From the NCBI GenBank assembly GCA_938083015.1, contig CALKCX010000003.1, positions 83,861 to 147,860 on the forward strand: a stretch of DNA of 64,000 bases. The letters are read 5' to 3'. This DNA is from an uncultured Candidatus Micrarchaeota archaeon. GTDB lineage: Archaea; Micrarchaeota; Micrarchaeia; Anstonellales; J096. The notes under the pieces were generated by a model, which was given only the letters and a program-made list of their open reading frames with translations, did no database searches and was not told where the DNA came from. Below, piece after piece: positions 2,138 to 58,958 of this stretch. Numbering within the stretch: position 1 is the stretch's first letter; each line of letters begins with the position of its first letter. Position numbers and translations under genes: made by a program.

Positions 2138-3040
2138 ATAATAAACTGGTTCACCATTTAATTTTACTCTATAATAAATTCTCTTGTAATACAATTCATC
2201 TATTAAATAAGAATCTTTTAGTATTCTAATATTGAATATAGAATGGGCAGCTGGTATGTTAAATGCAGATGGGTATATGTAAACAACTCCTTGTTTTTTA
2301 CTTACAGTACCCCTTACCCAACCATATTTATCTATAATTCTATTCCAATAGTTTACCTTCTCTCTAGCTTTTAGAAATGCCATATAATTAATATAAACTC
2401 TATCGACTCTTTCTAAAGTAGTTTCTGCTTTGTAATACTTTAAAGCGTGTTTAATATTTCTAAAGCTTATTGATTCTCTAAGTACTTTATATACTTCCCC
2501 TTCTTTATCTACTGTAATATCGTCTTTTATATTATCAAACGTCTCTTGAAAATCTGAGATTTGATCGTTTAATTCTTTCATAGAGATAAATTCTAGATTT
2601 GAAAATAAACCTAGATTTTCTCGCATATCTTCTATTAAATCCATTGTACGTTTGTAAGTAGAATACGATAGATTTAGAACGTGTTTATCAAAAAATTCAT
2701 TCTCTGCGATTATAACAAATTTATTACCGTTTTTAGCAGATCTAGATAGAGATTCAAGGAATAACAACATTGATAAATCCGGTATATAAGATTCGGCTTT
2801 AAGATAATTCTTTATCTTTGCAAGATAAAAGAAAAATGCTATTTTCTTATTAGCTATATTCGTAGGATATTCTATTTTTATCTCTCTAATAAGATTTTCC
2901 AACATCTCTTTTAAGTCTAAGATTGAAATGTTTATATTTTTCAATGCCCTATATCTTTTGATTATATTGTTTTTCTGTTGAAAAGAAAGTTGGGCAATTG
3001 GTGTATTTATAGGGTAATATGGTGTAATTTGTCTATCCAT
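2132..3040 (-). CDS. Hypothetical protein (302 aa)
   Basis: Long ORF convergent with the previous gene, with a 6-nt 3' overlap. TTTAAA 3062-3067 is centred 24.5 nt upstream of its ATG. Confidence 0.6.
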   Translation of the reverse strand: MDRQITPYYPINTPIAQLSFQQKNNIIKRYRALKNINISILDLKEMLENLIREIKIEYPTNIANKKIAFFFYLAKIKNYLKAESYIPDLSMLLFLESLSRSAKNGNKFVIIAENEFFDKHVLNLSYSTYKRTMDLIEDMRENLGLFSNLEFISMKELNDQISDFQETFDNIKDDITVDKEGEVYKVLRESISFRNIKHALKYYKAETTLERVDRVYINYMAFLKAREKVNYWNRIIDKYGWVRGTVSKKQGVVYIYPSAFNIPAAHSIFNIRILKDSYLIDELYYKRIYYRVKLNGEPVYYL

Positions 3041-3061
3041 AACATTAATAGATTAAAACAG

Positions 3062-3067
3062 TTTAAA
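3062..3067. promoter_or_regulatory. Shared TATA-like TTTAAA box for a divergent gene pair
   Basis: Centre is 24.5 nt from the ATG at 3040 (-) and 28.5 nt from the ATG at 3093 (+). Confidence 0.5.
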
Positions 3068-3092
3068 TAACTATGCTGTAATAAATAAATCG

Positions 3093-3608
3093 ATGAAAGA
3101 CATAGAAGATTATATAGAGATGTTAAAGCTATCTCCAAGATATGTATCTATTAAAAGTCTAGAATTATTACCTGATGGTATATATAGATGCTATTGTTCT
3201 GCACATGTAGAAAAAATATACGATAATATTGTGTTTAGTAATAATTTTAAAATAAGATTAGAAAATGTAAACATTCCAATATTTGAAGACGATATTTTAG
3301 TGTTTAGAAATTTTAAGAAAATTGGAAAAGAGCTAATTGTAAACGGAGAAACATTTGTAGATAGAAGTTCTAAAAGGCGTGTAAAAATAGAAAATGGTAC
3401 AATACTTATATTAAAAGGTTTATTGACTAAGGATGGAAATAATATGGTGTTAACAACGCCTAAACGTAAATTACCTTTAATCATAAGTCCAGAATGGCAA
3501 GATATACTTAATAAAAACCTAAGGCGATATATCGTATTGAGAAATGTAACATATCGTGAAGGTAGATTGATACTAAACCAAAGTTCAGAGGTGTATTTGG
3601 AAAGATGA
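3093..3608 (+). CDS. Hypothetical protein (171 aa), first gene of the hmgA operon
   Basis: ORF with a promoter box upstream. Its stop overlaps the hmgA start (ATGA at 3605-3608). Confidence 0.55.
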   Translation: MKDIEDYIEMLKLSPRYVSIKSLELLPDGIYRCYCSAHVEKIYDNIVFSNNFKIRLENVNIPIFEDDILVFRNFKKIGKELIVNGETFVDRSSKRRVKIENGTILILKGLLTKDGNNMVLTTPKRKLPLIISPEWQDILNKNLRRYIVLRNVTYREGRLILNQSSEVYLER

Positions 3609-7801: not shown

Positions 7802-8525
7802 AATATAACACCTTTTTGGTAAATATAAAGAAGATTATAAATAAAGATAAGTAAATCCATACTTCTGGTATTGTTAAGAATTTAGATATGTTATTGTATA
7901 TATTCTTTGAACCTTGTATTATCAATACATCATAAGATACTCTTTTTTTCAATAAAATAATTGGATCGTTTAAAGCAGTATTAGTCCATACGTAAGCATC
8001 TCCTTCTATATTTGGAGTAGGGGATATTTTAATAACTTGATAACTAGGATGAAATCTAAATAATAATCGCTCATTTCCAGTTAATAATATATTATTATTG
8101 CTTGTTCTTGTAAATGCTAGATAATTTGGGTCCATTGCTATTATTTCTAATCTAGATGTTCTGTTTAATATTTGAAACAATCCTTTATTACCAGGCCTTA
8201 TAGTATATTGAATTGTTAAATAAGCAAACCCTGAATTGTAATTTCTAAGAGATATCTGAGAGGCCTCGATGTTTATATTCTCTCTAACTAATCCTTCTCC
8301 AGAGATATGATAACCAAACTTTGTATCATTTATAAATTCTTTCCAATTAGATAATACTCCTGATTTTGATATGTTGATATAACCATCTATATCGTATACT
8401 AATAAAGTATAGAATTCTTTGACTGTTACTGTCATATCGTTGTCTAAGTAAATTTCAACCTTTATGTCTTTAAGTTCTGCAGCTGGTTGTGATTGTGCTA
8501 TTACAATAAGCAAAATTAATATCAT
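7779..8525 (-). CDS. Secreted/membrane-anchored protein, unknown function
   Basis: 248 aa with an N-terminal signal-like segment and a C-terminal TM (VWIYLSLFIIFFIF). Promoter box is 26.5 nt upstream. Overlaps pheS by 23 nt. Confidence 0.55.
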   Translation of the reverse strand: MILILLIVIAQSQPAAELKDIKVEIYLDNDMTVTVKEFYTLLVYDIDGYINISKSGVLSNWKEFINDTKFGYHISGEGLVRENINIEASQISLRNYNSGFAYLTIQYTIRPGNKGLFQILNRTSRLEIIAMDPNYLAFTRTSNNNILLTGNERLLFRFHPSYQVIKISPTPNIEGDAYVWTNTALNDPIILLKKRVSYDVLIIQGSKNIYNNISKFLTIPEVWIYLSLFIIFFIFTKKVLYYDKQGRI

Positions 8526-8547
8526 ATTAAGTATTATTAGATAATGC

Positions 8548-8555
8548 TTTTAAAA
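8548..8555. promoter_or_regulatory. Shared palindromic TATA box TTTTAAAA for a divergent pair
   Basis: Centre is 26.5 nt from the ATG at 8525 (-) and 25.5 nt from the ATG at 8577 (+), within a 51-bp intergenic region. Confidence 0.6.
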
Positions 8556-8576
8556 GCATAGAATAATAATAAACAT

Positions 8577-8996
8577 ATGGATAAGATTAGAAAGGAGAAA
8601 GAGTTGATAATAATAGCTGAAAATAAAACAGGGGCATTACACGAGATATCTTCAAGACTATCTAAGGCCGGAATTAACATAGATTCTATATTCGCTTATG
8701 TAAGTAATTGGGAAGCAATATTTAGATTAGTTACTACAGATTATGAAAGTTCAAGAAAGGAATTGATAAAAATTCCATATGTTAAAAACATAGACATAGA
8801 TGAAGTAGCAGTAGTAAGATTAGAGGATAAACCTGGAAGTCTAGCTAATCTTATGGAAAAATTAAGAAGATTAAACGTTGATATTGAATTAACATACATA
8901 ATTTACAGAGATGGAAAGTATACCGATGTTGCTCTTAAACCTTCTGAGATAAGTGTAGATGCTTTAATAAATTTACTTAAAACTAACAGAATATGA
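8577..8996 (+). CDS. Tandem ACT-domain protein
   Basis: 139 aa. Two ACT-like repeats: IIIAENKTGALHEISSRLSKAGINI and VRLEDKPGSLANLMEKLRRLNVDI. Confidence 0.7.
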   Translation: MDKIRKEKELIIIAENKTGALHEISSRLSKAGINIDSIFAYVSNWEAIFRLVTTDYESSRKELIKIPYVKNIDIDEVAVVRLEDKPGSLANLMEKLRRLNVDIELTYIIYRDGKYTDVALKPSEISVDALINLLKTNRI

Positions 8997-11721: not shown

Positions 11722-12669
11722 ATGATGAAAATCTACGTAATAGGTGTAGGGGATGCAGGTCTAAATATAATATCGAGAATGAAATTAAGAAAAATAGATA
11801 ATGTTAAGACCATAGGACTAGGATCTTCTTATAATAGTTTAATGGGAGCATTGGCCGATTATAAGATATTATTACCTACGGATATGACAGGACATGGTGC
11901 TGGAGGGAAACCTGAATTAGGAGAGAGAGCAATGATGATTGCTAAAGACAGAGTATTATCTATAATACAAGATCCTGATTTTATATTCATAGTAGCTGGA
12001 ATGGGAGGTGGTACAGGTACAGGAGCGTCTCCTGCTCTTGCTAAAATGCTATCAGATAAGTTTCCATCTGCAATTATAATAGGTGCAGTAACATATCCAT
12101 TTAGATTTGAGAGAGCTAGATTAAGAATAGCTTCTGCAGGAATTGAAAAATTGATTAAACATGTCCATACTTTGATATTAATAGATAATAATAAACTTTT
12201 AGATTACTATCCGAATATAAGTATTACAAAAGCATTCGAGATGGTGGACAATGTAGTTATAGGTGCAGTAACAGGATTAGTTAGTGTGCTAGTCGAAGAT
12301 TCATTGATAAACGTCGATTTAGCTGATCTTAAAGCGTTGTTATCAAAAGGAGGTCTTGTTATGATAGCTAATGGTTCTGGAAGCGGTGCAGATAGGGTAA
12401 AAAGGGCAATTCAATCAACGATATCGCATCCGTTACTTGATGTAGAATACGAAGGAGCTAAAGGTGCAATAGTCCATCTTACTATATCTCAAGATGTTCA
12501 ACTTGGAGAAGTAATAGAAGTTGCTAATCAACTTACTAAAGGTATAGCTGAAATGGGAGAAGTAAAAATGGGGGTAAGAGTTGACGAGAAGGCAAGAGAA
12601 AGTATAGAGGTGACTTTATTTGTAGTTGGTGTAAAATCTCGGCAATTGTTTGGAGAGCAATATGATTAA
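11722..12669 (+). CDS. ftsZ: FtsZ-family tubulin-like GTPase, divergent paralog
   Basis: 315 aa. GMGGGTGTGASPALA signature, GHGAGGKPELGE and NVDLADLK. The first glycine box has diverged (GVGDAGLN). Confidence 0.8.
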   Translation: MMKIYVIGVGDAGLNIISRMKLRKIDNVKTIGLGSSYNSLMGALADYKILLPTDMTGHGAGGKPELGERAMMIAKDRVLSIIQDPDFIFIVAGMGGGTGTGASPALAKMLSDKFPSAIIIGAVTYPFRFERARLRIASAGIEKLIKHVHTLILIDNNKLLDYYPNISITKAFEMVDNVVIGAVTGLVSVLVEDSLINVDLADLKALLSKGGLVMIANGSGSGADRVKRAIQSTISHPLLDVEYEGAKGAIVHLTISQDVQLGEVIEVANQLTKGIAEMGEVKMGVRVDEKARESIEVTLFVVGVKSRQLFGEQYD

Positions 12670-18656: not shown

Positions 18657-18755
18657 TGCAGGGGGTGGGATTTGAACCCACGCAGCCACAATGGCACCAG
18701 ATATCTCCGCTCTCTCTTGAGTCTGGCCCGTTTGACCAGGCTCCGGCACCCCTGC
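18657..18755 (-). tRNA. tRNA-Leu(CAA) with a 13-nt intron after position 37
   Basis: Cloverleaf folded by hand. Acceptor GCAGGGG/CCCCTGC, anticodon stem CCAGA/TCTGG, loop CT-CAA-G, intron about 18703-18715, long variable arm, T-arm GTGGG-TTCAAAT-CCCAC, discriminator A, no encoded CCA. Confidence 0.85.
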
Positions 18756-19766: not shown

Positions 19767-19852
19767 TGCAGGGGGTGGGATTTGAACCCACGAACCCACA
19801 ATGGGACCAGGTCCTAAACCTGGCGCCTTTGACCAGACTTGGCGACCCCTGC
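19767..19852 (-). tRNA. tRNA-Leu(UAG)
   Basis: Hand-folded. Acceptor GCAGGGG, anticodon stem CCAGG/CCTGG with loop TT-TAG-GA, long variable arm, T-arm GTGGG-TTCAAAT-CCCAC, discriminator A, no CCA. Confidence 0.85.
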
Positions 19853-23670: not shown

Positions 23671-24175
23671 ATTTTATTATACTTTCTTTATCTAAAGACT
23701 GTAATTGACTACCACATTCTGAACATCTAAATCCAAGATCAACAGCTTGATCAAAATCATATATTTTTATATCAAATCTACTAGAGCAATGAGGGCAATA
23801 ATATAATTCTTCATGTTCAATTCTTAATCTTAAATCCTCAATCTTACCAAACGTCTTATTTTTAATCCAATCTATAAGATCTTCTATACTAAGATTCCAA
23901 TAAAAGTTATACCAATTAGAGTTATTAGTACTTTCCTTTCGATACATCATGATTTTTTCATCGTACATTTTGTTTAAAACTTCTCTTACCTCTTTATTAC
24001 TTATCTGTAATGTTTTTGCAATTTCATCTTCTTTAAATTCCATTAAATTATTTTCAGTAACATATTTTATAACGGCCAATGCATTATTTCCAAGATTATC
24101 TATAATTATTTTTCTTATATCAGGGTCTTCAAGATACTTATTCAATGTATTTTTAGAATCAGAAAACCAATCCAT
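23663..24175 (-). CDS. tfe: Transcription factor E alpha (TFE/TFIIE-alpha-like), paralog 1
   Basis: 170 aa. Winged helix (EDEIAKTLQISNKEVREVLNKM...FYWNLS) followed by a zinc ribbon YYCPHC...RCSECGS. Overlaps paralog 2 by 8 nt. Confidence 0.75.
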   Translation of the reverse strand: MDWFSDSKNTLNKYLEDPDIRKIIIDNLGNNALAVIKYVTENNLMEFKEDEIAKTLQISNKEVREVLNKMYDEKIMMYRKESTNNSNWYNFYWNLSIEDLIDWIKNKTFGKIEDLRLRIEHEELYYCPHCSSRFDIKIYDFDQAVDLGFRCSECGSQLQSLDKESIIKYE

Positions 24176-24196
24176 AAATTATATTAAGATAAACTA

Positions 24197-24202
24197 TTTA
24201 AA
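24197..24202. promoter_or_regulatory. Single shared TTTAAA box for the divergent tfe operon and the ACT/pilus-ATPase operon
   Basis: Centre is 24.5 nt from the ATG at 24175 (-) and 25.5 nt from the ATG at 24225 (+), within a 49-bp intergenic region. Confidence 0.6.
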
Positions 24203-24224
24203 AATACAAACGTTTTATATAATT

Positions 24225-24626
24225 ATGAAAGAGATTAAGATTATTGAAAAATATAGGCCTCTTCTCATTTTAGATATTGCCTCTGTTATGGCCGATAATA
24301 ACATAAATATCGTGAATATTAATACGTATAACATAGGAGATATCGTGGTAATATCTATGTTATTTCAAGACAATGATTATAACAAGGCCTTTAGATTAGC
24401 TAAATCTCGATGGAATGTAGTTACAGATCCAAATATAATTATTGTAGAATTAGAAGATAAACCTGGACAATTGGCAAGATTGGCCAAATTATTATCAGAC
24501 AATAACATAGAATTGAAAAGTACTAATGTTGTGAATAAAATAGGAAATAAGACCTATGTGATGATAATGACTTCTGATAATGAAGCAGCTAAAACAGTAT
24601 TGCAAAGAGACTTTAACGTCTCATGA
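24225..24626 (+). CDS. Tandem ACT-domain protein (paralog of 8577-8996)
   Basis: 133 aa from the ATG at 24225. The track ORF from 23949 is an antisense extension into tfe. Repeat VELEDKPGQLARLAKLLSDNNIEL. Confidence 0.7.
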   Translation: MKEIKIIEKYRPLLILDIASVMADNNINIVNINTYNIGDIVVISMLFQDNDYNKAFRLAKSRWNVVTDPNIIIVELEDKPGQLARLAKLLSDNNIELKSTNVVNKIGNKTYVMIMTSDNEAAKTVLQRDFNVS

Positions 24627-25897
24627 TATCTGGATGGGTTGTATTTGAAGATGGAGATATAAAAATAGATACGATAAGATTGTCTAAAGATGAACTTAAA
24701 TTTGTTGAAGCTTTTTTAAACGAACTTTCTTTAAGAGAAGCAATAGATAAATCTAGAATAGAAATTCTATTAGATGACTTTAGTTCAAAATATAAAATAA
24801 TATTGAAAGCACATCAAAGAGAAAAAATATTAAAGACAATAGATAAATTCTATTTTGGTCTAGGTTATTTAGAAGATTTAATGAATCTAGATAGTGTAGA
24901 AGAAATAGCTGTTATAGGTCTAAACAAACCTATATATGTATATAAAGAAGGATGGCGATCTACTAATATTGGTATATCAAATAGAGACTATTTTATAGAT
25001 ATTGTAAATAAACTATCTTATAAATCTAATAGAAGAATAACTCTTAAAAATCCAAGATTAAATGCAAGTCTAGAGAATTATAGATTACACGCTACAATAG
25101 AACCGATTTCTGAATCAGAATTAACTATTAGGATGTTTAGAAAAAGCAGATTAAGCTATAAAAACTTTATAGATAAAAAAGTATATCCTGTCGAATTATT
25201 AAGTTATTTGGCAATGTTCATGTTTACAGATTCAAATATAGTAGTAGCTGGTAACACTGGTTCGGGCAAAACCAGTTTTCTTAATGTATTGTTATCATTC
25301 ATACCTTATAAAGATAGAATATTAATAATAGAAGAAACTCCTGAAATAGACATTGATCATCCACATAAGGTAAGATTAGTTGAAAATTTAGAATTAGGAG
25401 TTACATTAAGAGATTTAGTATACGATTCATTACGTATGAGAAGCGATAGAAGTGTAATTGGAGAAATTAGAAAACCAGAAGAAGTATTAGCTTTTATAGA
25501 TATCATGCTTTCAGGTCAGTCTAGAGGAAATTATACGACAATGCATGCTCATTCTTGTAAAGAATTGATAAATAGATTAATAACATACGGTGTTTCTAAG
25601 AATGATATAGAATCTATAGATCTTGTAATAATACAAAGACGTATATTAAATGACGATTTAACAGAAATTAGAAGAGCTACTGAAGTAGTATATGTACCAG
25701 AAAATACATTGTTATATATCAATGGAAAATTAGATCATCAAAGCTTTATAAGAATATTAGCTGATAGAATGTTTAAGGATGAAGATTATGTTAGAGCAAG
25801 ATACGGATTGATTAAAGATCATTTGATGACAAGTAATGGTGACGCTAAAGAGTTATTTTATAAATACCAAAAAGAGATATATGGATATAATATATAA
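24623..25897 (+). CDS. Type II/IV secretion-family ATPase (FlaI/PilB/VirB11-like) for a type IV pilus-like system
   Basis: 424 aa. Walker A GNTGSGKTSFLN, Walker B RILIIEETPEI, and SLRMRSDRSVIGEIR and TTMHAHS boxes. Confidence 0.85.
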   Translation: MISGWVVFEDGDIKIDTIRLSKDELKFVEAFLNELSLREAIDKSRIEILLDDFSSKYKIILKAHQREKILKTIDKFYFGLGYLEDLMNLDSVEEIAVIGLNKPIYVYKEGWRSTNIGISNRDYFIDIVNKLSYKSNRRITLKNPRLNASLENYRLHATIEPISESELTIRMFRKSRLSYKNFIDKKVYPVELLSYLAMFMFTDSNIVVAGNTGSGKTSFLNVLLSFIPYKDRILIIEETPEIDIDHPHKVRLVENLELGVTLRDLVYDSLRMRSDRSVIGEIRKPEEVLAFIDIMLSGQSRGNYTTMHAHSCKELINRLITYGVSKNDIESIDLVIIQRRILNDDLTEIRRATEVVYVPENTLLYINGKLDHQSFIRILADRMFKDEDYVRARYGLIKDHLMTSNGDAKELFYKYQKEIYGYNI

Positions 25898-27395
25898 GCT
25901 AATAGATTTATTTCCACCTTTAGTGTATTCAAGCAAATATGATAAGCTATTTAATGCATTGAATTTACCAGTTTCAAGCTCTAGGTATCTAACTAGTATT
26001 CTATTCTTATCTATATTATTGGTCATAATATTTATATTAATTGATATAACGTATTTGTTTATAGCTTTGATAATAACAAGTATTCTTCTATTGTACCCTT
26101 TTCTTAAGTATAGAATGGTGACTAATAATATTAAAGCAGATCTACCTAAATTTATAATAAACATTGGATCTGGATTGTTAATAGGACTTACTTTAGCAGA
26201 ATCTATTCGACTAGCTATGAAAGATAGTAAGATTTTAAAACAGTATTTTGCCCAGTATTTAGAAAAAATAGAACAAGGAGAAAGTATAAACAACGTATTG
26301 CTATCGTTTAGCAATAGATTCTTAGATCAAGAGATTAGACTTACAATATTTCAATTGATTAATTCTTTATTAACTGGTTCAGCTAGAGAGTTAAAACAAC
26401 TAGGAATGCAATTATTGAAAGATCAGATGTTTCAATTTAAAGAGTTTGGAAATAGATTGCAAACTATATCACAATTTTACGTAGTATTTATGCTTTTATT
26501 ACCTGTATATGGCTTTACTATTCTTGTTATGTCTATAGCTTCAGAACAACCTATACCAGATATTATTCCATTGTTTGTATTTTTATTTCCTATGATACTG
26601 TTGGTCTTTATATTAACAGTGTATTTAATAATTCCTACCAATTATCTAATTGACGGTCATCTAGATTTAAATCCATTGATATTTAATTGGTTAGTATTGA
26701 TAATTGCCTATTATTCAAACATAGAAATGTTTTACATTTTAATATTTTATATAATCACATCGATAATTTTATTGTTTTTAAACTTAGATCAGATAAAATT
26801 AAAAGTATATATTGATAGGTTAGAGAAATCAATATTAGACGTGGCCTTGGTAATATCATCCCTACCTAGTTTCAATCTAAAGATACTGTTTGAAAGAATT
26901 GTAAAATATAACATAATTGGTTGGAATCTACTTGCACAGAGAGCTTTAAATATGTATGAAAATGGGGTAAGTGTAAGAGAGATATTTAAAATGTTTTATA
27001 GTATACCTTCAAAATACATTAGATTGTTTATAACAAATTTAGAATACATATATTATTCGGGCATTTCTTCTCATGAAAGAGTAGTAGAATGGTTAGAATC
27101 GTTTATAAATATGATTAATCTTAAAAGAGAAGTAGAATTACAATTAGATGTTTTCAAATACACAATATTGATCTCTCTTTTAATACTTCCTATAATATAT
27201 GCTTATATATACAAATTTACAAATAAGTTAATTGGAATTGAATTATATGTGTTAGGGTATTTACCATTGATAATAGTCGGTGGAGGTATTTCTATGTTAT
27301 CTACGATATATAGATATAAGTTTAGTATGTTATATACTCTATTGTTATCGATATTGGTAGTAATAACTTATTCTCTAATGTTGAATTTATATTAA
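25881..27395 (+). CDS. Polytopic membrane platform protein (FlaJ/TadC/PilC-like)
   Basis: About 504 aa from the ATG at 25881 (track start 25836). Many TM segments in two blocks, directly following the secretion ATPase. Confidence 0.6.
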   Translation: MDIIYKLIDLFPPLVYSSKYDKLFNALNLPVSSSRYLTSILFLSILLVIIFILIDITYLFIALIITSILLLYPFLKYRMVTNNIKADLPKFIINIGSGLLIGLTLAESIRLAMKDSKILKQYFAQYLEKIEQGESINNVLLSFSNRFLDQEIRLTIFQLINSLLTGSARELKQLGMQLLKDQMFQFKEFGNRLQTISQFYVVFMLLLPVYGFTILVMSIASEQPIPDIIPLFVFLFPMILLVFILTVYLIIPTNYLIDGHLDLNPLIFNWLVLIIAYYSNIEMFYILIFYIITSIILLFLNLDQIKLKVYIDRLEKSILDVALVISSLPSFNLKILFERIVKYNIIGWNLLAQRALNMYENGVSVREIFKMFYSIPSKYIRLFITNLEYIYYSGISSHERVVEWLESFINMINLKREVELQLDVFKYTILISLLILPIIYAYIYKFTNKLIGIELYVLGYLPLIIVGGGISMLSTIYRYKFSMLYTLLLSILVVITYSLMLNLY

Positions 27396-27422
27396 AAGTG
27401 AAATTTTTTGTTAAAAATTACT

Positions 27423-27585
27423 AAAAAGGGGGAGAGGGGTCAGTCCCAAAACAGATGCAGGTTTTTAACAACCGGCCGCATTTGTAAAAATTACAATAAT
27501 TTAAGATAAACTTGTAATATTTACAAAAATAAATTAATATCAAACATTTAAATCAAACTTGGAAGTGACCTCTCCCCCCGTTTTG
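27423..27585. other. Nested inverted-repeat element with G/C-rich arms (candidate structured ncRNA, MITE-like or origin-like element)
   Basis: Arms GGGGGAGAGGGGTCA (27428-27442) and TGACCTCTCCCCCC (27566-27579) are complementary. Inner repeat 27481-27496 / 27512-27527 is 15/16 complementary. T-runs flank the element on both strands. It lies in a convergent intergenic gap. Confidence 0.5.
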
Positions 27586-27614
27586 TGATATTTTTTATTA
27601 AAAATTACACTAAA

Positions 27615-28118
27615 TTAAGTATTAAAATGAGTTTTTAGTATTTCATTTAACAGTACTTGAGCTAATTCTACACGTATTTTGTTAGCAATTACGTATTGAG
27701 CTAACATGAATAAACTATCAAATAATTCTATATAATCTGGATTATGTAACATAGTTTGTTTATACTCATCAAGTTCTTGTTTAACAAATATATGACCTCT
27801 ATCTGGATAGTGTCTAATAAGTAAATCTCTTGTATATTGAGAGTAAAATTCTCTATTCGTATTGAATATTACAGCTATAGGATTATCTTTAAGTTCCAAA
27901 TTGTATATCGGATAATTTTTTTGTCTAGATTTTATTTCTTGCCATAATCTTTCTAAATATGTTCTATCATTAATACCTTGTCCATTTTTTTTAAGATATT
28001 CATATCTCTGTTTGTATTTTCCATATCCTTTCATCAAATCTTGCTCTGGAATTATGGTATACATTGCTAAAGCTACTGATGTTTCCATAAAAATAGTCGT
28101 TTTCATTGTTATTCGCAC
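27615..28118 (-). CDS. Hypothetical protein (167 aa) translationally coupled to nrdJ
   Basis: ORF overlapping the nrdJ 3' end by 10 nt. No family recognised. Confidence 0.55.
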   Translation of the reverse strand: MRITMKTTIFMETSVALAMYTIIPEQDLMKGYGKYKQRYEYLKKNGQGINDRTYLERLWQEIKSRQKNYPIYNLELKDNPIAVIFNTNREFYSQYTRDLLIRHYPDRGHIFVKQELDEYKQTMLHNPDYIELFDSLFMLAQYVIANKIRVELAQVLLNEILKTHFNT

Positions 28119-30601
28119 TTACCATAACCACAGTTTAGACATACATGACAACCATTTTCTATTACCAAAGTATACTCTTTACATATAGGACATTGACTCA
28201 TAACTTGCTTATCTATAGGTTTTGGATTGCTTTTTAGAGTCCATTTTTTAAGATGTTCATGCCAAACAGTTGTTATCGTTCCATCAGTTTTAATGTAAGG
28301 TTCTAAACCGCTTATTATGGCCCGCTTTACAGTTTTTGAAATAGGATCATAAAGCTCAACTTCAAATTTTGTCTTTTTATATTCTTCTAATTCTCTAGAT
28401 TTTTTGCTATTAGTATTAAGTATAGCGAATCTACTTCCTTCTCTATATATGGTCACTCCTTTTAATCCTTTTCTCCAAGCTTCTATATAAAGTTTCGATA
28501 TGGTATCTGGATGGACATCTTCAGGTAAATTAATTGTTGAACTTATACTATGATCAACGTATTTTTGTATTCTAGATTGTATTTCAATTCTCTTCATCCA
28601 ATCTATTACATGTGCAGTACGAGTAAGATAATCGGGCAACTCAGGATTATCTGTATTAACTCCATTTTTATCCATCCAATATCTAATTGAAGAATGAAAT
28701 ACGTGAAATGTCTTCTTTAGGTTTTCCGAATATCTTGTGTAAGAAATGCTAAATACAGGTTCTATACCACCACTTACTCCTGTGTATATCTTATCTGAAT
28801 CTACATAAGCTATGACGATATTGCTAATACTACCTGTTGGAGCAATTGATAGTAATGCCACATTTCTAAGACCGTATTTTTCAATCTCTTTTCTTATATC
28901 TAAATCAATACTTTCTTTTATAAATGGCGATTCTAATATAGATTTGGAATAAGCTTCAAACACACCTCTCTCTTTTGCCAATTCTACAGAATAATAATAG
29001 GCCTTATTTGCTATAAATCGCATTACTTTTTCTACTAAATCAATAGCTTGTTCTTCATCGTATTTTAATCTCATGGCCATTAACATATCTGCAACGCCCA
29101 TTACGCCCAATCCTATTCTTCTGGTCAATCTTGCAGACATTCTCTGTTTAGGTAATGGATTCATATGGGTATTCCATTCTACAACATTATCCATAAACCT
29201 TATAGCTATTCTTATTATCTTGTCTAACAATTCATAATCGATCTCTGCATTTTCTTGAAATGGGTTTTTTACAAATCTTACAAGATTAATACTTCCCAAA
29301 TTACAAGATCCACCGTCTTCTAAAGGCACTTCACTACAAGGATTAGTACCAATTATCTTCCTACCTATGTAATCGCTGTTACTGTATTTCACCATATGAC
29401 TCCAGAATATTAATCCAGGTTCTGCAAATTTATAATTACCTATGACAAACAGATTCCATATATCTAAGGCGTTGTATAAATTTCTTATTTCACCGGTTTC
29501 TTGACTAGCAAATATTGTCATAAAATCACCAGCTCTTCTTATAGCATAGATTTGATTGTTTAATTTGACTATGAAATCACCGTATATATCTCTTTTCCAA
29601 ACATCATTCAAATCAACATCAATTTTCATATATTCTAATAAATGTTTTTCATCGTCAAAAATTTTAACTAATTTGTAATTATCAATAGGTTTTGAAGGAA
29701 TATCATAACTATAATGCACATTTACATAATCTTGATCGTATTTAGGAATATTGTAATTCGTAACTTGATACATTAAGATCTTTCCTCTATAATTTAAAGC
29801 TTCTTGCAATGCTTGAAAGAATTCATCTGTAAATTTAATACTTATATTAGCGTATCTTATTTGGAAGTTTTCTATCAACCTTTTCTGCACGATGTTAGCT
29901 TGTTCTTCATTTAGACCAAGATCTTGTTTAATTAAATTAGTTGCCATAGATACATCGTAATTAGGAAAAGATTTAGAAAGAATGAAATTGATTATATCTG
30001 GATGTTTTACATTTATAGTTAACATCAAGGCACCTCTTCTGCCTTGTTGACCTATTAAACCGGTTGTTAGAGAATAAAGATACATAAAAGATACTGCACC
30101 AGTTGATGTATTTGAGGCATTATGAACTATTGCCCCTGCAGGTCTTAATACAGATATATCTGTACCAATACCACCTCCGTATGAATAGGTCCTAGCGGCT
30201 TCATATGCTGTCTGAAATATAGATTCTATAGAATCGTTTTCTATAATTGATACAAAACAATTTGCCAATGTCTTTGATCTATAATCACCAGCACCAGCTA
30301 ATACTCTGCCCCCAGGTATAAAATAACCGTTTCTCATAATTTCAAAGAATTCTTTAGCTATTGTTTCTTTATCATTACTATTATCTATAGCTGCAACGAA
30401 TGAAGCTACTCTTCTATATACATCTTCTGGATGCTCTTCTATTCGATCTTCATTTTTTAACATATATTTTGCTCGAAATATCGATAATGCCAAATAGTCT
30501 CTTTCTTCGTCGTATTTATAAAGATTAGGAATTCTATTAAGATATTCTAAAAGTCTCTTAAAATTCTCGTAGAATTCGGCCTTTATCTTTTTTTCAATCA
30601 T
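28109..30601 (-). CDS. nrdJ: Adenosylcobalamin-dependent (class II) ribonucleotide reductase
   Basis: 830 aa. Blocks LANCFV, GGGIGTDIS.LRP, TNPCSEVPL, SCNLGSINL and a C-terminal Cys cluster CPICK...CHVCLNCGYGKCE. GGTGGGGTGA lies just upstream of the ATG. Confidence 0.9.
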   Translation of the reverse strand: MIEKKIKAEFYENFKRLLEYLNRIPNLYKYDEERDYLALSIFRAKYMLKNEDRIEEHPEDVYRRVASFVAAIDNSNDKETIAKEFFEIMRNGYFIPGGRVLAGAGDYRSKTLANCFVSIIENDSIESIFQTAYEAARTYSYGGGIGTDISVLRPAGAIVHNASNTSTGAVSFMYLYSLTTGLIGQQGRRGALMLTINVKHPDIINFILSKSFPNYDVSMATNLIKQDLGLNEEQANIVQKRLIENFQIRYANISIKFTDEFFQALQEALNYRGKILMYQVTNYNIPKYDQDYVNVHYSYDIPSKPIDNYKLVKIFDDEKHLLEYMKIDVDLNDVWKRDIYGDFIVKLNNQIYAIRRAGDFMTIFASQETGEIRNLYNALDIWNLFVIGNYKFAEPGLIFWSHMVKYSNSDYIGRKIIGTNPCSEVPLEDGGSCNLGSINLVRFVKNPFQENAEIDYELLDKIIRIAIRFMDNVVEWNTHMNPLPKQRMSARLTRRIGLGVMGVADMLMAMRLKYDEEQAIDLVEKVMRFIANKAYYYSVELAKERGVFEAYSKSILESPFIKESIDLDIRKEIEKYGLRNVALLSIAPTGSISNIVIAYVDSDKIYTGVSGGIEPVFSISYTRYSENLKKTFHVFHSSIRYWMDKNGVNTDNPELPDYLTRTAHVIDWMKRIEIQSRIQKYVDHSISSTINLPEDVHPDTISKLYIEAWRKGLKGVTIYREGSRFAILNTNSKKSRELEEYKKTKFEVELYDPISKTVKRAIISGLEPYIKTDGTITTVWHEHLKKWTLKSNPKPIDKQVMSQCPICKEYTLVIENGCHVCLNCGYGKCE

Positions 30602-33636: not shown

Positions 33637-34734
33637 GTGATGATTGTGGCAGATCAAAACACAGACGAGATGATACTTGAAAATGAGGTTAGTAAAGATG
33701 AAGAGGAAATTTTAAAGTTAATAGAACAAGAACAGGAAAAGATAATGGTAATAGGTGCAGGTGGAGGTGGATCGAATACAATTAATAGACTATTTGAATT
33801 TAGACCTGCTAATAATGTTACTTTAATAGCTGCTAATACTGATGCTAGACATTTACTTGGTATAAAAGCTCATAGAAAAATATTAATAGGTCAACAGTTG
33901 ACAAAGGGAAGAGGGTGTGGTAGTAATCCTGAATGTGGAGAGAAAGCTGCTCAAGAAACAGCAGCTAAGATAAAAGAAGCTTTAAATGGTGCCGATTTAA
34001 TATTCTTGACATGTGGTATGGGGGGTGGTACAGGTACAGGAGCATTACCAGTAATAGCAAAGATAGCTAAACAAGACGTAGGTGCTTTAACAGTTGGAGT
34101 AGTCACTTTGCCATTCCAGGCCGAAGGTAAGATTAGAATGGAAAATGCGATATCTGGTATAAAGAAATTAAAACAGAATGTAGATACGTTGATAATAATA
34201 AAGAATGATAAACTTCTAGATATAGCTAAAGATCTTCCTTTAGATAAGGCATTTAAGATAGCTGATGAAGTATTGGCAAGATCTGTTAAGACTATTGCTG
34301 AGATGTCTGTAAAAGCAGGTTTGATAAACGTGGACTTTGCAGATTTGACAACAGTCTTAAAAAATGGAGGGTATGCAGTAATAGCAATAGGAGAATCGGC
34401 ATTAGAAGGAAGTAAAGAAGAAAGGGCAAAATTGGCAATAGAAACAGCATTATCTAATCCTTTATTAGATGTAGATATATCTACTGCAGATAGGGCATTG
34501 ATAAATATTATTGGTGGAGAAGATTTGGTATTACAAGAGGTAAACTATATCGTTGAAGAGACTAGAAAGAGAATTAACCCTAATGCACATATTATCCATG
34601 GTGCTAGAATAGAACCTGATATGAAAAAATCATCTATAAGAGTATTAGTAGTATTAGCAGGCGTTACATTGCCAAATGATTTCTATGAAGATCAACATAA
34701 TATAAAAGATGTTCTTGGAATAGAAAAGATATGA
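33637..34734 (+). CDS. ftsZ: Cell division GTPase FtsZ
   Basis: 365 aa. IGAGGGGSNTINRL, GMGGGTGTGALPVIA and NVDFADL. Conserved archaeal ftsZ-secE-nusG linkage. Confidence 0.95.
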   Translation: MMIVADQNTDEMILENEVSKDEEEILKLIEQEQEKIMVIGAGGGGSNTINRLFEFRPANNVTLIAANTDARHLLGIKAHRKILIGQQLTKGRGCGSNPECGEKAAQETAAKIKEALNGADLIFLTCGMGGGTGTGALPVIAKIAKQDVGALTVGVVTLPFQAEGKIRMENAISGIKKLKQNVDTLIIIKNDKLLDIAKDLPLDKAFKIADEVLARSVKTIAEMSVKAGLINVDFADLTTVLKNGGYAVIAIGESALEGSKEERAKLAIETALSNPLLDVDISTADRALINIIGGEDLVLQEVNYIVEETRKRINPNAHIIHGARIEPDMKKSSIRVLVVLAGVTLPNDFYEDQHNIKDVLGIEKI

Positions 34735-39426: not shown

Positions 39427-42351
<2,925 letters not shown>

Positions 42352-53796: not shown

Positions 53797-53888
53797 GCCG
53801 GGTTGGCGGAGCGGCTACGCAACCGGCTGCAGATAGCTCCAGTTATAGTAGAAACCGGTGTAGGTGGGTTCGACTCCCACACCCGGCT
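53797..53888 (+). tRNA. tRNA-Cys(GCA) with a ~21-nt intron after position 37
   Basis: Hand-folded. Acceptor GCCGGGT/ACCCGGC, anticodon stem ACCGG/CCGGT, loop CT-GCA-G, intron about 53833-53853, T-arm GTGGG-TTCGACT-CCCAC. Discriminator U fits tRNA-Cys identity. No CCA. Confidence 0.75.
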
Positions 53889-57764: not shown

Positions 57765-58262
57765 CTATCCCACCTCGTATATACCAGTGTATCCGAAGAC
57801 TATGAAGAATAAATACTTTAAAGCTGGCGTAATAAGTAAAGTCAAAGCCAATATATATGCTGCTAATAGCATAGCTACTGCAACATTACCATTTTTTAAT
57901 TCTACAACGGTATTAAACTTACCTAAGTTTAAATACTTAAATACTTGATAAGCTATGAATATTGTAGTTATTCCTACTATTATAGTAAAACTAAATCTAA
58001 GTATATCGTAAATTAAACTTTTAATAAAATGATTTATATTGAGAACTACAAAGGATTCTCTAAAGATATCACTTAACATAATACTGGTAGATATTATTAT
58101 TGCACTTAACACAAGACCAATACTTTGATTTTTCTTCTTTACTTCTGTCATTTCTTCAATCTCTTTTGTTAATAGATCGAATATTCTTATACTTATTAAC
58201 AACATTATTAGACCGAATATAAGATTGATTAGCATCTTTAGTATTGCAAGGTATACTTCCAT
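57765..58262 (-). CDS. DUF350-like membrane protein
   Basis: 165 aa. Two repeats, the second ELKNGNVAVAMLLAAYILA, match the DUF350 pattern. Promoter geometry favours an internal start at 58235. Confidence 0.6.
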   Translation of the reverse strand: MEVYLAILKMLINLIFGLIMLLISIRIFDLLTKEIEEMTEVKKKNQSIGLVLSAIIISTSIMLSDIFRESFVVLNINHFIKSLIYDILRFSFTIIVGITTIFIAYQVFKYLNLGKFNTVVELKNGNVAVAMLLAAYILALTLLITPALKYLFFIVFGYTGIYEVG

Positions 58263-58264
58263 GC

Positions 58265-58270
58265 TTTTAA
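58265..58270 (-). promoter_or_regulatory. TTTTAA box within repeated GCTTTTAAT motif, copy 1
   Basis: Predicts a TSS near 58242, upstream of the internal ATG at 58235 of the DUF350 gene. Confidence 0.4.
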
Positions 58271-58334
58271 TACTATCCTTAAGTTTTTATGTTTTTGTTT
58301 TAGCTTTTTCTTTAAGATCTATAAAAAGTTTAGT

Positions 58335-58556
58335 TCACGATGACTTGTATGAAAAATATTCAACTACTCGAAGAAATACCCAAATTAATATTGCGACAAT
58401 TGATAACATAATTACAATTATAAAAGCTTTTTTTAATCCCGGATCGGGCATTAAAAACTTTATCACAATTGCCCCTATAGCCATTATTAAGAAAAGCAGA
58501 ATAAAAACAATAAATATAAAGATCATATCATTAATTATCAAACTAACAGGCACCAT
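58335..58556 (-). CDS. Small two-TM membrane protein (73 aa)
   Basis: Hydrophobic ORF. The box in the TAGCTTTTAAT motif (58579-58584) is centred exactly 25.5 nt upstream of its ATG. Confidence 0.55.
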   Translation of the reverse strand: MVPVSLIINDMIFIFIVFILLFLIMAIGAIVIKFLMPDPGLKKAFIIVIMLSIVAILIWVFLRVVEYFSYKSS

Positions 58557-58578
58557 ATAGTTATGATATAATTTTAGC

Positions 58579-58584
58579 TTTTAA
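58579..58584 (-). promoter_or_regulatory. TTTTAA box within repeated GCTTTTAAT motif, copy 2
   Basis: Centre is 25.5 nt upstream of the ATG at 58556. Confidence 0.5.
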
Positions 58585-58640
58585 TATTTTTTATTTTCAA
58601 ATCTAAATTGCTTAAAATGCTAAAAATCTATTGTAAGGTA

Positions 58641-58763
58641 TCAAGAGAAGGTGTTTAAAAGGAACACTATTATAATAGGAAGGGTGAATATTAAGAAAAC
58701 TACTAATGATATAATGAATATAATTAACATTATATCTGGCGATTCAGAACTTTCTTCGTCCAT
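58641..58763 (-). CDS. Micro-ORF encoding a 40-aa single-TM peptide (MDEESSESPDIMLIIFIISLVVFLIFTLPIIIVFLLNTFS)
   Basis: Translated by hand and below the ORF-track cutoff. An acidic N-terminus followed by a hydrophobic helix. Promoter box is centred exactly 25.5 nt upstream. Confidence 0.45.
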   Translation of the reverse strand: MDEESSESPDIMLIIFIISLVVFLIFTLPIIIVFLLNTFS

Positions 58764-58785
58764 ATTTTATAATATGACTTTAGCT

Positions 58786-58791
58786 TTTTAA
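58786..58791 (-). promoter_or_regulatory. TTTTAA box within repeated GCTTTTTAAT motif, copy 3
   Basis: Centre is 25.5 nt upstream of the ATG at 58763. Confidence 0.5.
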
Positions 58792-58958
58792 TACTATTTT
58801 AATAGCTTTATCTTATCGTCAAAATAATATCAATTATCTTTATAACAATTATTATAACAACTATAGCAACCACCAATTCTAATATATTTTTCACAAAATC
58901 CGTTTTCCATTCATGTTTTTAGTATGTTTTTTATTTTTTATTCTTTCTAATAACAAAC

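Follow-up and report, generated by a model that had tools for sequence, protein, structure and literature searches.

A mirror-symmetric, single-copy non-coding element conserved between two convergent operons in an Anstonellales clade

The convergent gap and the parts of the element

In the window (the whole 64,000-nucleotide stretch of DNA analysed), a type-IV-pilus-like membrane gene converges on a small ORF and the class II ribonucleotide reductase (RNR) operon to which that ORF belongs. The 219-nt gap between them is filled entirely by one element of ~230 bp (~27388–27620), larger than the 27423–27585 region of the original prediction, and its dyad symmetry extends to both flanking stop codons. 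The genes and features are listed below; those for which no strand is given are unstranded.

25881–27395, plus strand: T2SSF/FlaJ-like polytopic membrane gene, 504 aa using the start of the relatives (listed ORF start 25836)
27388–27403: left outer motif TATATTAAAAGTGAAA, a degenerate window copy of the clade palindrome TTCACTT-WW-AAGTGAA
27404–27421: left inner flank, a T6 run (27404–27409) and the box AAAAATTAC (27413–27421)
27428–27449: left arm, purine tract GGGGGAGAGG (27428–37) and core GGTCAGTCCCAA (27438–49)
27457–27496: polar conserved module, consisting of a GG block, GCAGG (27457–61), an A/T stretch TTTTTAAC (27462–69), the GC knot AACCGGCCGCA (27470–80) and an A/T palindrome TTTGTAAAAATTACAA (27481–96)
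27497–27558: variable A/T-rich spacer, holding a second palindrome copy TTGTAATATTTACAAA (27512–27527)
27559–27579: right arm, core TTGGAAGTGACC (27559–70) and pyrimidine tract TCTCCCCCC (27571–79)
27587–27596: right inner flank GATATTTTTT, mirror of the AAAWTTWC box (minus strand AAAAATATC)
27605–27620: right outer motif TTACACTAAATTAAGT (minus strand ACTTAATTTAGTGTAA), overlapping the stop of the minus-strand 167-aa ORF (27615–27617)
27615–30601, minus strand: operon of class II (B12-dependent) ribonucleotide reductase and small ORF, from Pfam and homologue names
27615–28118, minus strand: small ORF after RNR, 167 aa as listed, 157 aa from the start of the relatives
28109–30601, minus strand: class II RNR gene, ribonucleotide reductase by Pfam, with homologues named adenosylcobalamin-dependent

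The T2SSF/FlaJ-like gene is the final gene of an ACT / T2SSE-ATPase / T2SSF operon. Its product is 100 % identical to the 504-aa protein P0001, the PF00482 match is weak in relatives, and its TAA stop codon (27393–27395) lies inside the left outer motif. On the other side, the naming of the RNR operon in the original prediction is confirmed by Pfam. The small ORF beside RNR is clade-specific, and its predicted structure is all-helical (pLDDT 64.5), with no match to PDB folds at E ≤ 0.001. Similarity to the TSCPD protein found 3' of RNR in a more distant relative (L137) was not detectable, and the small ORF was rejected as a partner protein. A link to the RNR promoter through an NrdR-like operator was likewise rejected: palindromes upstream of RNR are not conserved and differ from those of the element.

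The spacing of the two operons is exceptional, because seven of the eight convergent CDS pairs in this genome overlap, by 4–29 nt. At the remaining convergent junctions a CDS meets a tRNA gene, and the two abut within 0–4 nt. The one other long gap examined as an origin candidate (696 nt) holds small membrane ORFs. Within the element there are open frames, but frame and stop positions vary among relatives; there is no conserved ORF, and a small protein gene was rejected.

Both halves of the element share a common layout: the outer AAGTGAA palindrome at the stop codon, AAAWTTWC, a purine tract of 10–14 nt, and an invariant GGTCA-N-TTCCAA core. The invariant positions of the arm are G..G..G..G, GTCA, T, CC and A. 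The spacing from the outer palindrome to AAAWTTWC is fixed at 23–24 nt (11/12 half-sites, counted by eye). In the window, the left box AAAAATTAC ends 23 nt past AAG and 6 nt ahead of the purine tract. Its minus-strand sequence, GTAATTTTT, forms a T-run right after the 3' arm of that strand. Within the same inner flank AAAATTAC is invariant across relatives. The right inner flank provides the plus-strand T6 run, 11 nt past the 3' arm. In the outer motif AAGTGAA is the conserved portion, while the centre is loosely TATA-like; the left copy scores 5.6 bits as a TATA box, in the top 0.3 % of window 10-mers. Matches to the outer palindrome in relatives occur solely at the two ends of the element gap. 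G+C content is 65 % in the arms, 22 % in the interior and 12 % in the flanks. The interior, ~110 nt and A/T-rich, is divided between the conserved polar module and a neutral half. The GC knot and TTTGTAAA recur in five lineages, placed 22–27 nt from one arm.

All of the sequence features originally described were recovered. The outer arm GGGGGAGAGGGGTCA at 27428–27442 has an imperfect reverse complement at 27566–27580, and a search of the 64 kb allowing up to three mismatches found this single pair against 0.13 expected. The predicted GG bulge is present: the best pairing is 10 perfect bp between GGGGGAGAGG (27428–37) and CCTCTCCCCC (27569–78), continued inward by the GG bulge, TCA/TGA, a G-G mismatch and CCAA/TTGG, so that each arm reaches ~22 nt. 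The inner repeats (27481–27496 and 27512–27527) are 15/16 complementary as stated, and the second copy, TTGTAATATTTACAAA, can pair with 27481–96. Each is also itself a palindrome, TTGTAAnnnTTACAA, with three matches against 0.73 expected. The GC knot at 27470–80 and the TTTAAA at 27547–52 are both there, but the latter is not conserved among relatives. The flanking TTAAAAATTAC strings lie within a longer 24-nt direct repeat (27398–27421 and 27585–27608, 22/24 identical), and the T-runs beyond the structure exist on both strands. In most lineages T4–T6 runs follow the arms on both strands, starting 1–12 nt past them; they are absent from some. Both strands fold strongly compared with shuffled sequence (z = -5.4 and -5.0), since the inverted repeat alone gives this.

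Conservation, copy number and inversion of the core

Six related lineages carry the element in the corresponding gap; their identity to the window is 47–71 % for the pilus-gene protein and 61–78 % for RNR. Non-conservation of the arms in close relatives had been named at the outset as a sign of a chance or simple terminator hairpin; instead, the arms are kept and the element is conserved at the same locus. The most informative comparison is between L124 and L131, where 12–16 % of third codon positions differ. Flanks, arms and polar module show no differences in 154 nt, compared with seven in the remaining 52 nt (P ~4e-9). The polar-module equivalent carries zero substitutions, and the other half of the interior changes at an approximately neutral rate. 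By this comparison purifying selection acts on ~150 nt of the gap. The single SNP between the window and its near-identical relative L121 falls in the variable A/T-rich spacer. Motif order and spacing are common to all 12 half-sites. The flanks of each side form their own orthologous lineage, left apart from right, so each half is under selection of its own. The more distant relatives L137, L138 and L139 have lost synteny, and their retrieved regions (~20 kb around RNR) lack the element.

The 64-kb window contains the element once, and ~196 kb of related loci likewise gave none of the dispersed copies expected of a MITE. A metagenome scan added a single true homologue, which lies at the orthologous locus; a scan of viral contigs gave none. 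An arms-only pattern, too loose to be specific, matched >120 G/C-rich bacterial loci in genome contigs, an unrelated repeat family, and no A/T-rich archaeal locus. The MITE proposed earlier, or a relic of a mobile element that duplicated its target and carries inverted repeats at its termini, would account for the G/C-rich inverted termini and the 22/24 direct repeat on either side. The element occurs as a single copy, however, so that it is not a MITE, and it occupies the same syntenic site in every relative examined with no presence/absence polymorphism. The flanks once taken for target-site duplications are mirrored, functional-looking motifs conserved in all lineages, and the element has diverged in step with the genome. 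A mobile origin is therefore extremely improbable. Taken together, the gap is an autonomous, single-copy, non-coding locus, mirror-symmetric and strongly constrained, specific to one clade of the Anstonellales (DPANN).

Comparison of the window with its closest relative, L122, reveals that the core is inverted. The two are identical at 107/134 positions when one is reverse complemented and at 91/134 when aligned forward (z = -5.8), whereas the flanks are collinear (37/42 and 38/46 identical). The window and L123 have the polar module toward the pilus gene; L122, L124, L131, L127 and L135 have it toward RNR. Given the ranking of these lineages by protein identity, its presence on opposite sides implies at least two flips, and the repeat-bounded core has probably inverted two or more times within the clade. 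Both orientations exist between species only: no orientation polymorphism was seen within the sets of near-identical assemblies (window/L121, L124/125/126, L127/128/129 and L135/136).

These inversions raise the question of a programmed invertible element, an archaeal inverton, in which the repeats would serve as recombination sites and the polar module, as a promoter or binding site, would flip toward the pilus or the RNR operon. Besides the inverted core with collinear flanks and the opposite positions of the polar module, the size of the segment and its 22–25 bp repeats are within the range of bacterial invertible promoters, and a cell-surface (pilus-like) operon adjoins. This is nevertheless a quite unlikely explanation. 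The near-identical assemblies are all in one orientation, no recombinase domain appeared among the 41 window ORFs scanned, a subset of those in the window, and the arms have no internal dyad of the sort usual in recombinase core sites. With the two neighbours converging, nothing but antisense targets lies downstream; rare recombination between inverted repeats accounts equally well for the flips between species. It is similarly improbable that an invertible cassette moves a polar regulatory module between the 3' ends of the pilus and RNR operons, acting through antisense transcription or a protein roadblock. If it did, it would represent a previously undescribed kind of archaeal phase-variation switch.

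Small RNA, DNA site or shared 3' structure

Of the possible identities of the element, a small hairpin-RNA locus or a protein-bound DNA site is the most likely, in preference to a mobile element or a plain terminator. The structured ncRNA of ~100–165 nt in the original prediction survives as the leading, though weakly supported, reading, in the form of a clade-specific hairpin small-RNA locus. It lacks a match in Rfam, and its promoter-like boxes are mediocre.

As envisaged, a hairpin RNA of ~165–175 nt, possibly one per strand, would start a few nt past AAAWTTWC, 6–7 nt ahead of the purine tract and 23–24 nt downstream of the A/T centre of the outer AAGTGAA palindrome. Such a start would match the TATA-to-start geometry of the tRNA and leaderless mRNA promoters of the genome, where a TATA box stands 16–23 nt from the start codon or from the 5' end of the tRNA, with boxes serving both directions. 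The transcript would run from a G-rich 5' arm through the A/T-rich interior to a C-rich 3' arm, and may end at the T-run of the opposite flank, which is the reverse complement of the A-rich box of the other side. Stable RNAs of the genome terminate in T5–6. The functional part would be the closing helix of 22–25 bp, with invariant GGUCA-N-UUCCAA / UUGGAA-N-UGACC, which presumably serves as a platform for protein binding. Constraint would also act on the polar module, as a second segment, leaving the remainder as a free linker. Both flanks carry mirror-image signals, so inversion of the core need not silence the locus, which fits the inversions between lineages. Transcription, transcript ends, protein partner and role are all inferred.

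Several observations are consistent with such an RNA. A 219-nt convergent gap is retained where convergent pairs otherwise overlap, and it is conserved at orthologous positions under purifying selection, with all 12 half-sites alike and the halves selected separately. The flank spacing resembles the local TATA geometry, T4–T6 runs follow the arms in most lineages, and the arms are far richer in G+C than interior or flanks. The closing helix is kept in every sequence (95.7 % of cells paired), and four of its 18 pairs show double changes.

Other observations weaken it. Only five of the 12 outer boxes fall in the top 1 % of window 10-mers against the local TATA profile and two score below zero; they are moderate TATA matches, and it is AAGTGAA, not the A/T centre, that is conserved. 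Covariation is weak: 12 of the 18 stem pairs are invariant, and shuffle controls gave 2–3/500 for percent paired and covariation score but 63–64/500 for pair and type counts. The 5' arm is always purine-only, with no compensation of the transversion type, which resembles sequence read-out more than helix maintenance. The interior, at 22 % G+C and half neutral, is unlike the tRNA and rRNA of the window. No strand is consistently favoured: folding energy and wobble pairs are mixed across strands, with G-U (5) and A-C (4) wobbles in the stem showing no bias. Covariance-model searches of the window and three relatives at permissive E-values gave nothing past the gathering threshold for any Rfam family, including SRP, RNase P, 5S, C/D and H/ACA; the best hits (E 0.4–8) were to unrelated eukaryotic lncRNA/miRNA models. 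By eye, none of SRP helix 8, RNase P, C/D, H/ACA, k-turn, BHB and SECIS fits. Finally, every conserved motif is strand-symmetric and would suit recognition of double-stranded DNA equally.

The second candidate, possible if somewhat doubtful, is a protein-bound double-stranded DNA site, in which the mirrored boxes (the outer palindromes, and the purine tract with GGTCA-N-TTCCAA) would bind symmetric protein assemblies around an A/T-rich spacer. It may be an origin unlinked to orc1/cdc6, in which non-canonical ORB-like boxes flank an unwinding element, or a chromosomal cis site, for example in segregation, condensin loading or boundary formation. In published archaeal origins, inverted conserved repeats, some of them G-rich at their ends, flank a region rich in A/T, and ORBs and G-strings have been described (PMC4010727, PMC3528665). 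The geometry here matches: inverted arms (27428–49 and 27559–79), conserved in six lineages, enclose an interior of 22 % G+C. Also in line with a DNA site, the arm cores are invariant in sequence and not merely in pairing, the purine tracts stay purine-only with A positions loosely matched between arms, and every conserved motif is palindromic or dyadic. Half of the spacer is neutral yet still A/T-rich, inversion of the core is tolerated, and the element is single copy; all three suit such a site.

The origin-like arrangement first proposed has its A/T-rich stretch between inverted conserved repeats, but no initiator gene was seen beside it, and the gene strands are convergent, not divergent. 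The 41 window ORFs scanned gave no Orc1/Cdc6, WhiP, AAA+/Cdc6 or other initiator domain, and the two ORFs of the right size without a Pfam hit (385 and 427 aa) give no AAA+ signal; such initiators are also absent from the gene calls of the syntenic relatives (L121–L136). The ORB pattern is a dyad, TCCA..TGGA, with the G-string 3' of GGAAA on the same strand. The arms appear not to match this consensus, their homopurine run being 5' of TTCCAA. Gene strands converge on the region and GC skew tracks the coding strand only. In the more distant relatives, the ~20 kb surrounding RNR did not show the element, and a DNA site leaves the T-runs and the polar module unexplained.

The earlier suggestion of an elaborate bidirectional terminator is insufficient, given the overlap of the other convergent pairs and the ~150 nt under selection. 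A related and unlikely proposal is a shared 3' hairpin, in which both convergent mRNAs end in a large hairpin and T-run acting as a terminator or a 3'-UTR stabilizer. The position of the element at the 3' ends of two convergent operons agrees with this, as do the G/C-rich stem followed by T-runs on both strands and the dyad, through which either transcript would form the same hairpin. A5 and T4 bracket the stem in the window and L122, as in a bacterial bidirectional terminator. L127 and L135, however, lack this bracket and the T-run right behind the pilus gene. A dedicated spacer is not needed in this genome, since convergent pairs overlap and tRNA genes abut CDSs. The stem encloses ~110 nt, unlike an intrinsic terminator, and this "loop" carries the constrained polar module. 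Neither the invariant arm cores nor the outer AAGTGAA is required for termination. A terminator scan found no site using the outer arms as a stem, and AAGTGAAATTTTT does not mark gene ends in general, with 9 matches against 11 expected.

Comparison with known systems

The DPANN archaea have tiny, tightly packed genomes in which non-coding elements are nearly undescribed. Here, a 230-bp element is kept under strong selection where convergent genes otherwise tolerate no spacer, with a mirrored design in which the core can flip while the flanking signals are retained. If an RNA, it would represent a new archaeal family with an unusual inversion-tolerant locus; if a DNA site, it could give Micrarchaeota-type archaea their first candidate origin or chromosomal cis-element, one unlinked to orc1/cdc6. 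Under either reading it is a concrete target, testable on public read sets.

6S RNA, Y RNA and similar molecules are hairpin RNAs with a closing stem. The predicted ~165-nt RNA would resemble them in that its ends form a long conserved helix, which could serve as a protein platform around a poorly conserved interior. It differs in having no similarity to Rfam by sequence or covariance model, no Ro/Rsr-like partner gene near the element, a very A/U-rich interior and a locus that is mirror-symmetric as DNA.

Thermococcales and Methanosphaera dif sites are reported to have inverted repeats on their flanks (Cortez et al. 2010, PMC2958812). The element is, similarly, a unique conserved intergenic site toward which local gene orientation converges, with a G/C-rich hexamer between A/T-rich sequences. 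By inspection of the oriented alignment against the Pyrococcus abyssi dif sequence, ATTGGATATAATCGGCCTTATATCTAAA, no similarity was seen. The conserved 11-6-11 inverted repeat of Xer/dif sites is found neither at the GC knot nor elsewhere in the element: the arms match 6–7 of 11 positions, not conserved between lineages, and the A/T palindrome is a 7-3-7 arrangement. The element was rejected as a Xer/dif site.

Bidirectional terminators and REP-like hairpins share with the element a G/C-rich stem between convergent genes and T-runs on both strands. In contrast to these, the element has a 110-nt interior with a selected module and sequence-invariant stem cores, and it is unique in a genome whose other convergent pairs are spacerless.

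Bacterial invertible promoters (fimS, hin and the Bacteroides PS loci) are bounded by repeats of ~20–25 bp enclosing 100–200 bp. The element likewise has ~20–25 bp inverted repeats around a 100–200 bp segment, present in both orientations beside a surface-appendage operon. Its orientations differ between species only, a recombinase was not found nearby, and it is situated at gene 3' ends, in an archaeon.

In comparison with an archaeal oriC, the element lacks an adjacent orc1/cdc6 or whiP, its box sequence and G-tract polarity appear unlike ORB and mini-ORB, and its outer palindromes overlap stop codons in a convergent setting, not upstream of an initiator gene. The likeness lies in the ~22 bp inverted boxes with G-rich outer ends around a ~110 bp A/T-rich stretch, and in an intergenic position that is single copy and syntenically conserved.

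Setting and anatomy of the element

The window is archaeal, with ~29% G+C, and its nearest homologues are labelled Candidatus Anstonellales or Micrarchaeota (DPANN archaea) in their source records. Gene layout is compact: seven of the eight convergent CDS pairs overlap by 4–29 nt, and tRNA genes abut CDS at distances of 0–4 nt. Divergent pairs are separated by ~50-nt gaps with one central TTTAAA(A) box, 16–23 nt from both start codons (e.g. 3040–3093, 8525–8577 and 24175–24225), a layout suggesting that both genes use one bidirectional TATA box and that their mRNAs are leaderless. The exception to this compactness is the 219-nt convergent gap filled by the element, which must hold something functional because the genome is otherwise so compact. 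Its neighbours are as follows.

Left: T2SSF/FlaJ-like (pilus-like) membrane gene, preceded by a T2SSE ATPase gene
Right, other strand: class II, B12-type ribonucleotide reductase (RNR) and a clade-specific helical small ORF

On re-inspection, the original description of 27423–27585 matched the sequence, and the element is larger than reported there: dyad symmetry covers 53 nt per side and reaches the stop codon of the neighbouring gene at either end. In a search of the 64-kb window, the arm GGGGGAGAGGGGTCA (27428–27442) had a single partner, on the opposite strand at 27566–27580, against 0.13 matches expected by chance. Optimal pairing joins GGGGGAGAGG with CCTCTCCCCC in 10 perfect base pairs and extends inward through a GG bulge, TCA/TGA, a G-G mismatch and CCAA/TTGG, giving ~22 nt per arm. 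The arms have 65% G+C against a background of 12–22%. The inner repeat (27481–27496 and 27512–27527) is complementary at 15 of 16 positions, as first described, and both of its arms are individually palindromic (TTGTAAnnnTTACAA). The flanking TTAAAAATTAC strings are likewise present, as part of a longer 24-nt direct repeat (identity 22/24). Relative to shuffled sequence, folding of both strands is better by ~5 standard deviations; this score only restates that the region is an inverted repeat.

Conservation, selection and interspecies inversion

Five clusters with homology to the pilus-gene product, together with the top-ranked RNR homologues, yielded syntenic contigs from independent samples; a metagenome scan contributed one more, L131. 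The equivalent gap is 206–230 nt in all of them and can be aligned across six lineages (the window with the near-identical L121; L122; L123; L124 with L131; L127; L135 with L136). The arms, whose absence from close relatives the original prediction had allowed for, are kept across all six. The element is absent from the retrieved regions of the distant Micrarchaeota/Anstonellales L137 and L139, where synteny is lost.

For every lineage the left half was aligned to the reverse-complemented right half. All 12–14 half-sites have one common layout.

Part 1: outer palindrome TTCACTT-WW-AAGTGAA, overlapping the stop codon
Part 2: box AAAWTTWC, 23–24 nt inward of the outer palindrome
Part 3: purine-only tract of 10–14 nt, 6–7 nt beyond AAAWTTWC
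Part 4: invariant GGTCA-N-TTCCAA core, next after the purine tract

Across species, left flanks resemble one another and so do right flanks; the halves have therefore not been homogenized by gene conversion. Each half is maintained by selection for identical features. Between L124 and L131, third codon positions of the flanking genes differ at 12–16%. All seven differences in the gap are confined to one 52-nt interior stretch, and there are none in the remaining 154 nt of flanks, arms and one interior half (P ~4e-9 at the lower neutral rate). By these comparisons the element is strongly selected.

The constrained interior half (27457–27496), here termed the polar module, starts 8–10 nt from one arm with a GG block, which is followed by an A/T stretch, then a G/C-rich knot, then the palindrome TTTGTAAAAATTACAA. 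Knot and palindrome lie 22–27 nt from the arm, and three lineages have a self-complementary hexamer as the knot (CGGCCG, GCGCGC and ACGCGT). The window, L121 and L123 have the module at the pilus-gene end of the gap; in L122, L124, L131, L127 and L135 it is at the RNR end. Comparison of the window with its closest relative, L122, finds 107 of 134 core positions identical in reverse complement against 91/134 forward (z = -5.8), with collinear flanks (37/42 and 38/46). This alignment is firm evidence that the core is inverted between the two while the flanks stayed fixed. At least two inversions in the clade are likely, given the ranking by protein identity: L123 has the orientation of the window, and L122 that of the remaining lineages. 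For more distant lineages, where global-alignment signals are weak, orientation was called from the polar module. No orientation difference was found among near-identical assemblies, which all agree; a programmed invertible switch is improbable.

Other loci in the window

Further loci are listed by position.

11722–12669 (+) and 33637–34734 (+): two FtsZ paralogues (315 and 365 aa), <22 kb apart
18657–18755 (-): 99-nt tRNA (Rfam, 45.9 bits), uncalled by ARAGORN
27615–28118 (-): the clade small ORF, an all-helical protein of 150–175 aa in the slot after RNR, co-occurring with the element
39443–42335 (-): solitary LSU rRNA gene with its own promoter-like box and processing-stem flanks
53797–53888 (+): 92-nt tRNA-Cys
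58262–58959: 696-nt stretch without a large ORF, with small hydrophobic minus-strand ORFs (73 and 40 aa) and a 22-nt TTATGATATAATTTTAGCTTTT-like box in three copies

The 99-nt tRNA is probably a second, intron-bearing tRNA-Leu, because its acceptor and T-arm ends are identical to those of tRNA-Leu at 19767–19852; the tRNA-Cys may also bear an intron. The rRNA genes are unlinked, since the 64-kb window has no SSU or 5S gene with the LSU. Small membrane-protein genes with repeated promoters may be clustered at 58262–58959. The small-ORF protein gave neither a Pfam match below E = 0.001 nor a significant match to any PDB fold. Distant Micrarchaeota/Anstonellales have a TSCPD-domain gene after class II RNR (8406–9017 in L137; 12541–13170 in L139), and the L137 protein is not detectably similar to the small-ORF protein. 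Gene strands converge on 27–38 kb (~64% of coding length on the plus strand to the left, ~68% on the minus strand to the right), and cumulative GC skew over 1–64000 peaks near 36–38 kb, a pattern that might mark a terminus-like zone or be no more than local fluctuation.

Candidate functions and relation to known elements

Transcription, RNA ends, binding partners and function of the element are treated here as predictions. The highest-ranked candidate, a tentative one, is a hairpin small-RNA locus specific to the clade, with promoter/terminator flanks in mirror image. In its favour, the arms are G/C-rich, the closing helix is paired in 95.7% of cells, with double changes at four pairs, and in most lineages the arms are followed by T-runs on both strands. 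The AAAWTTWC box ends 23–24 nt from the A/T centre of the outer palindrome, a spacing similar to the TATA-to-start distance (16–23 nt) at this genome's tRNAs and leaderless mRNAs, where the boxes serve both directions. Each flank may act as promoter for one strand and terminator for the other, a double role that would explain both the shared flank features and the tolerated core flip. The structured-RNA reading of the original prediction gains from the helix and T-runs, but is weakened by mediocre promoter boxes and by 12 of 18 stem pairs being without any variation. Against the local TATA profile, 5/12 outer boxes rank in the best-scoring 1% of the window's 10-mers and two score below zero (moderate overall), and their conserved letters are AAGTGAA, not the A/T centre. 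Neither G-U against A-C counts in the stem (5 vs 4) nor folding energies consistently favour one strand.

The moderate boxes, invariant pairs and lack of strand preference would suit a protein-bound double-stranded DNA palindrome, including an origin unlinked to orc, a possible but less probable reading. All conserved motifs are palindromic or dyadic, the purine tract remains purine-only with A positions loosely matched, and half of the interior is neutral and A/T-rich. Published general descriptions of archaeal origins place an A/T-rich region between inverted repeats, some of which carry G-strings (PMC4010727, PMC3528665), and the element's geometry fits this part of the origin-like proposal. 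The neighbour that would define an origin is missing: no Orc1/Cdc6 domain occurs among the 41 window ORFs scanned, in keeping with the earlier remark that none is nearby, or in the gene calls of syntenic relatives. Genes converge on the region rather than diverge, and GC skew merely tracks the coding strand. The boxes do not appear to match the ORB motif. A shared 3' hairpin or terminator, ranked next and ahead of the invertible switch, is unlikely: the proposed elaborate bidirectional terminator is insufficient to explain the gap because other convergent pairs here mostly overlap without a spacer, and a generic terminator motif was rejected.

A small protein gene inside the element was also rejected, as was a dif site (no 11-6-11 repeat). 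The covariance-model check suggested for an ncRNA was run, and Rfam searches matched no known RNA family. Lowest ranked is the MITE reading, which is ruled out, to within a very slight chance, by orthologous position in all relatives and by single-copy status in the window and ~196 kb of related DNA, and scans of sequence collections turned up no dispersed copies. In many G/C-rich bacteria, including Planctomycetota, Alpha- and Gammaproteobacteria and Legionella, at least 120 loci (L001–L120) carry inverted arms GGGGGAGAGGGYTRGGGTGAGGGGG ... CCCCCTCACCCYARCCCTCTCCCCC, ~140–160 nt apart and often several per genome. These arms make up a REP/MITE-like repeat family of wide distribution, with no relation to the archaeal element. 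The element itself is real, unique in its genome and unassigned to any known family.
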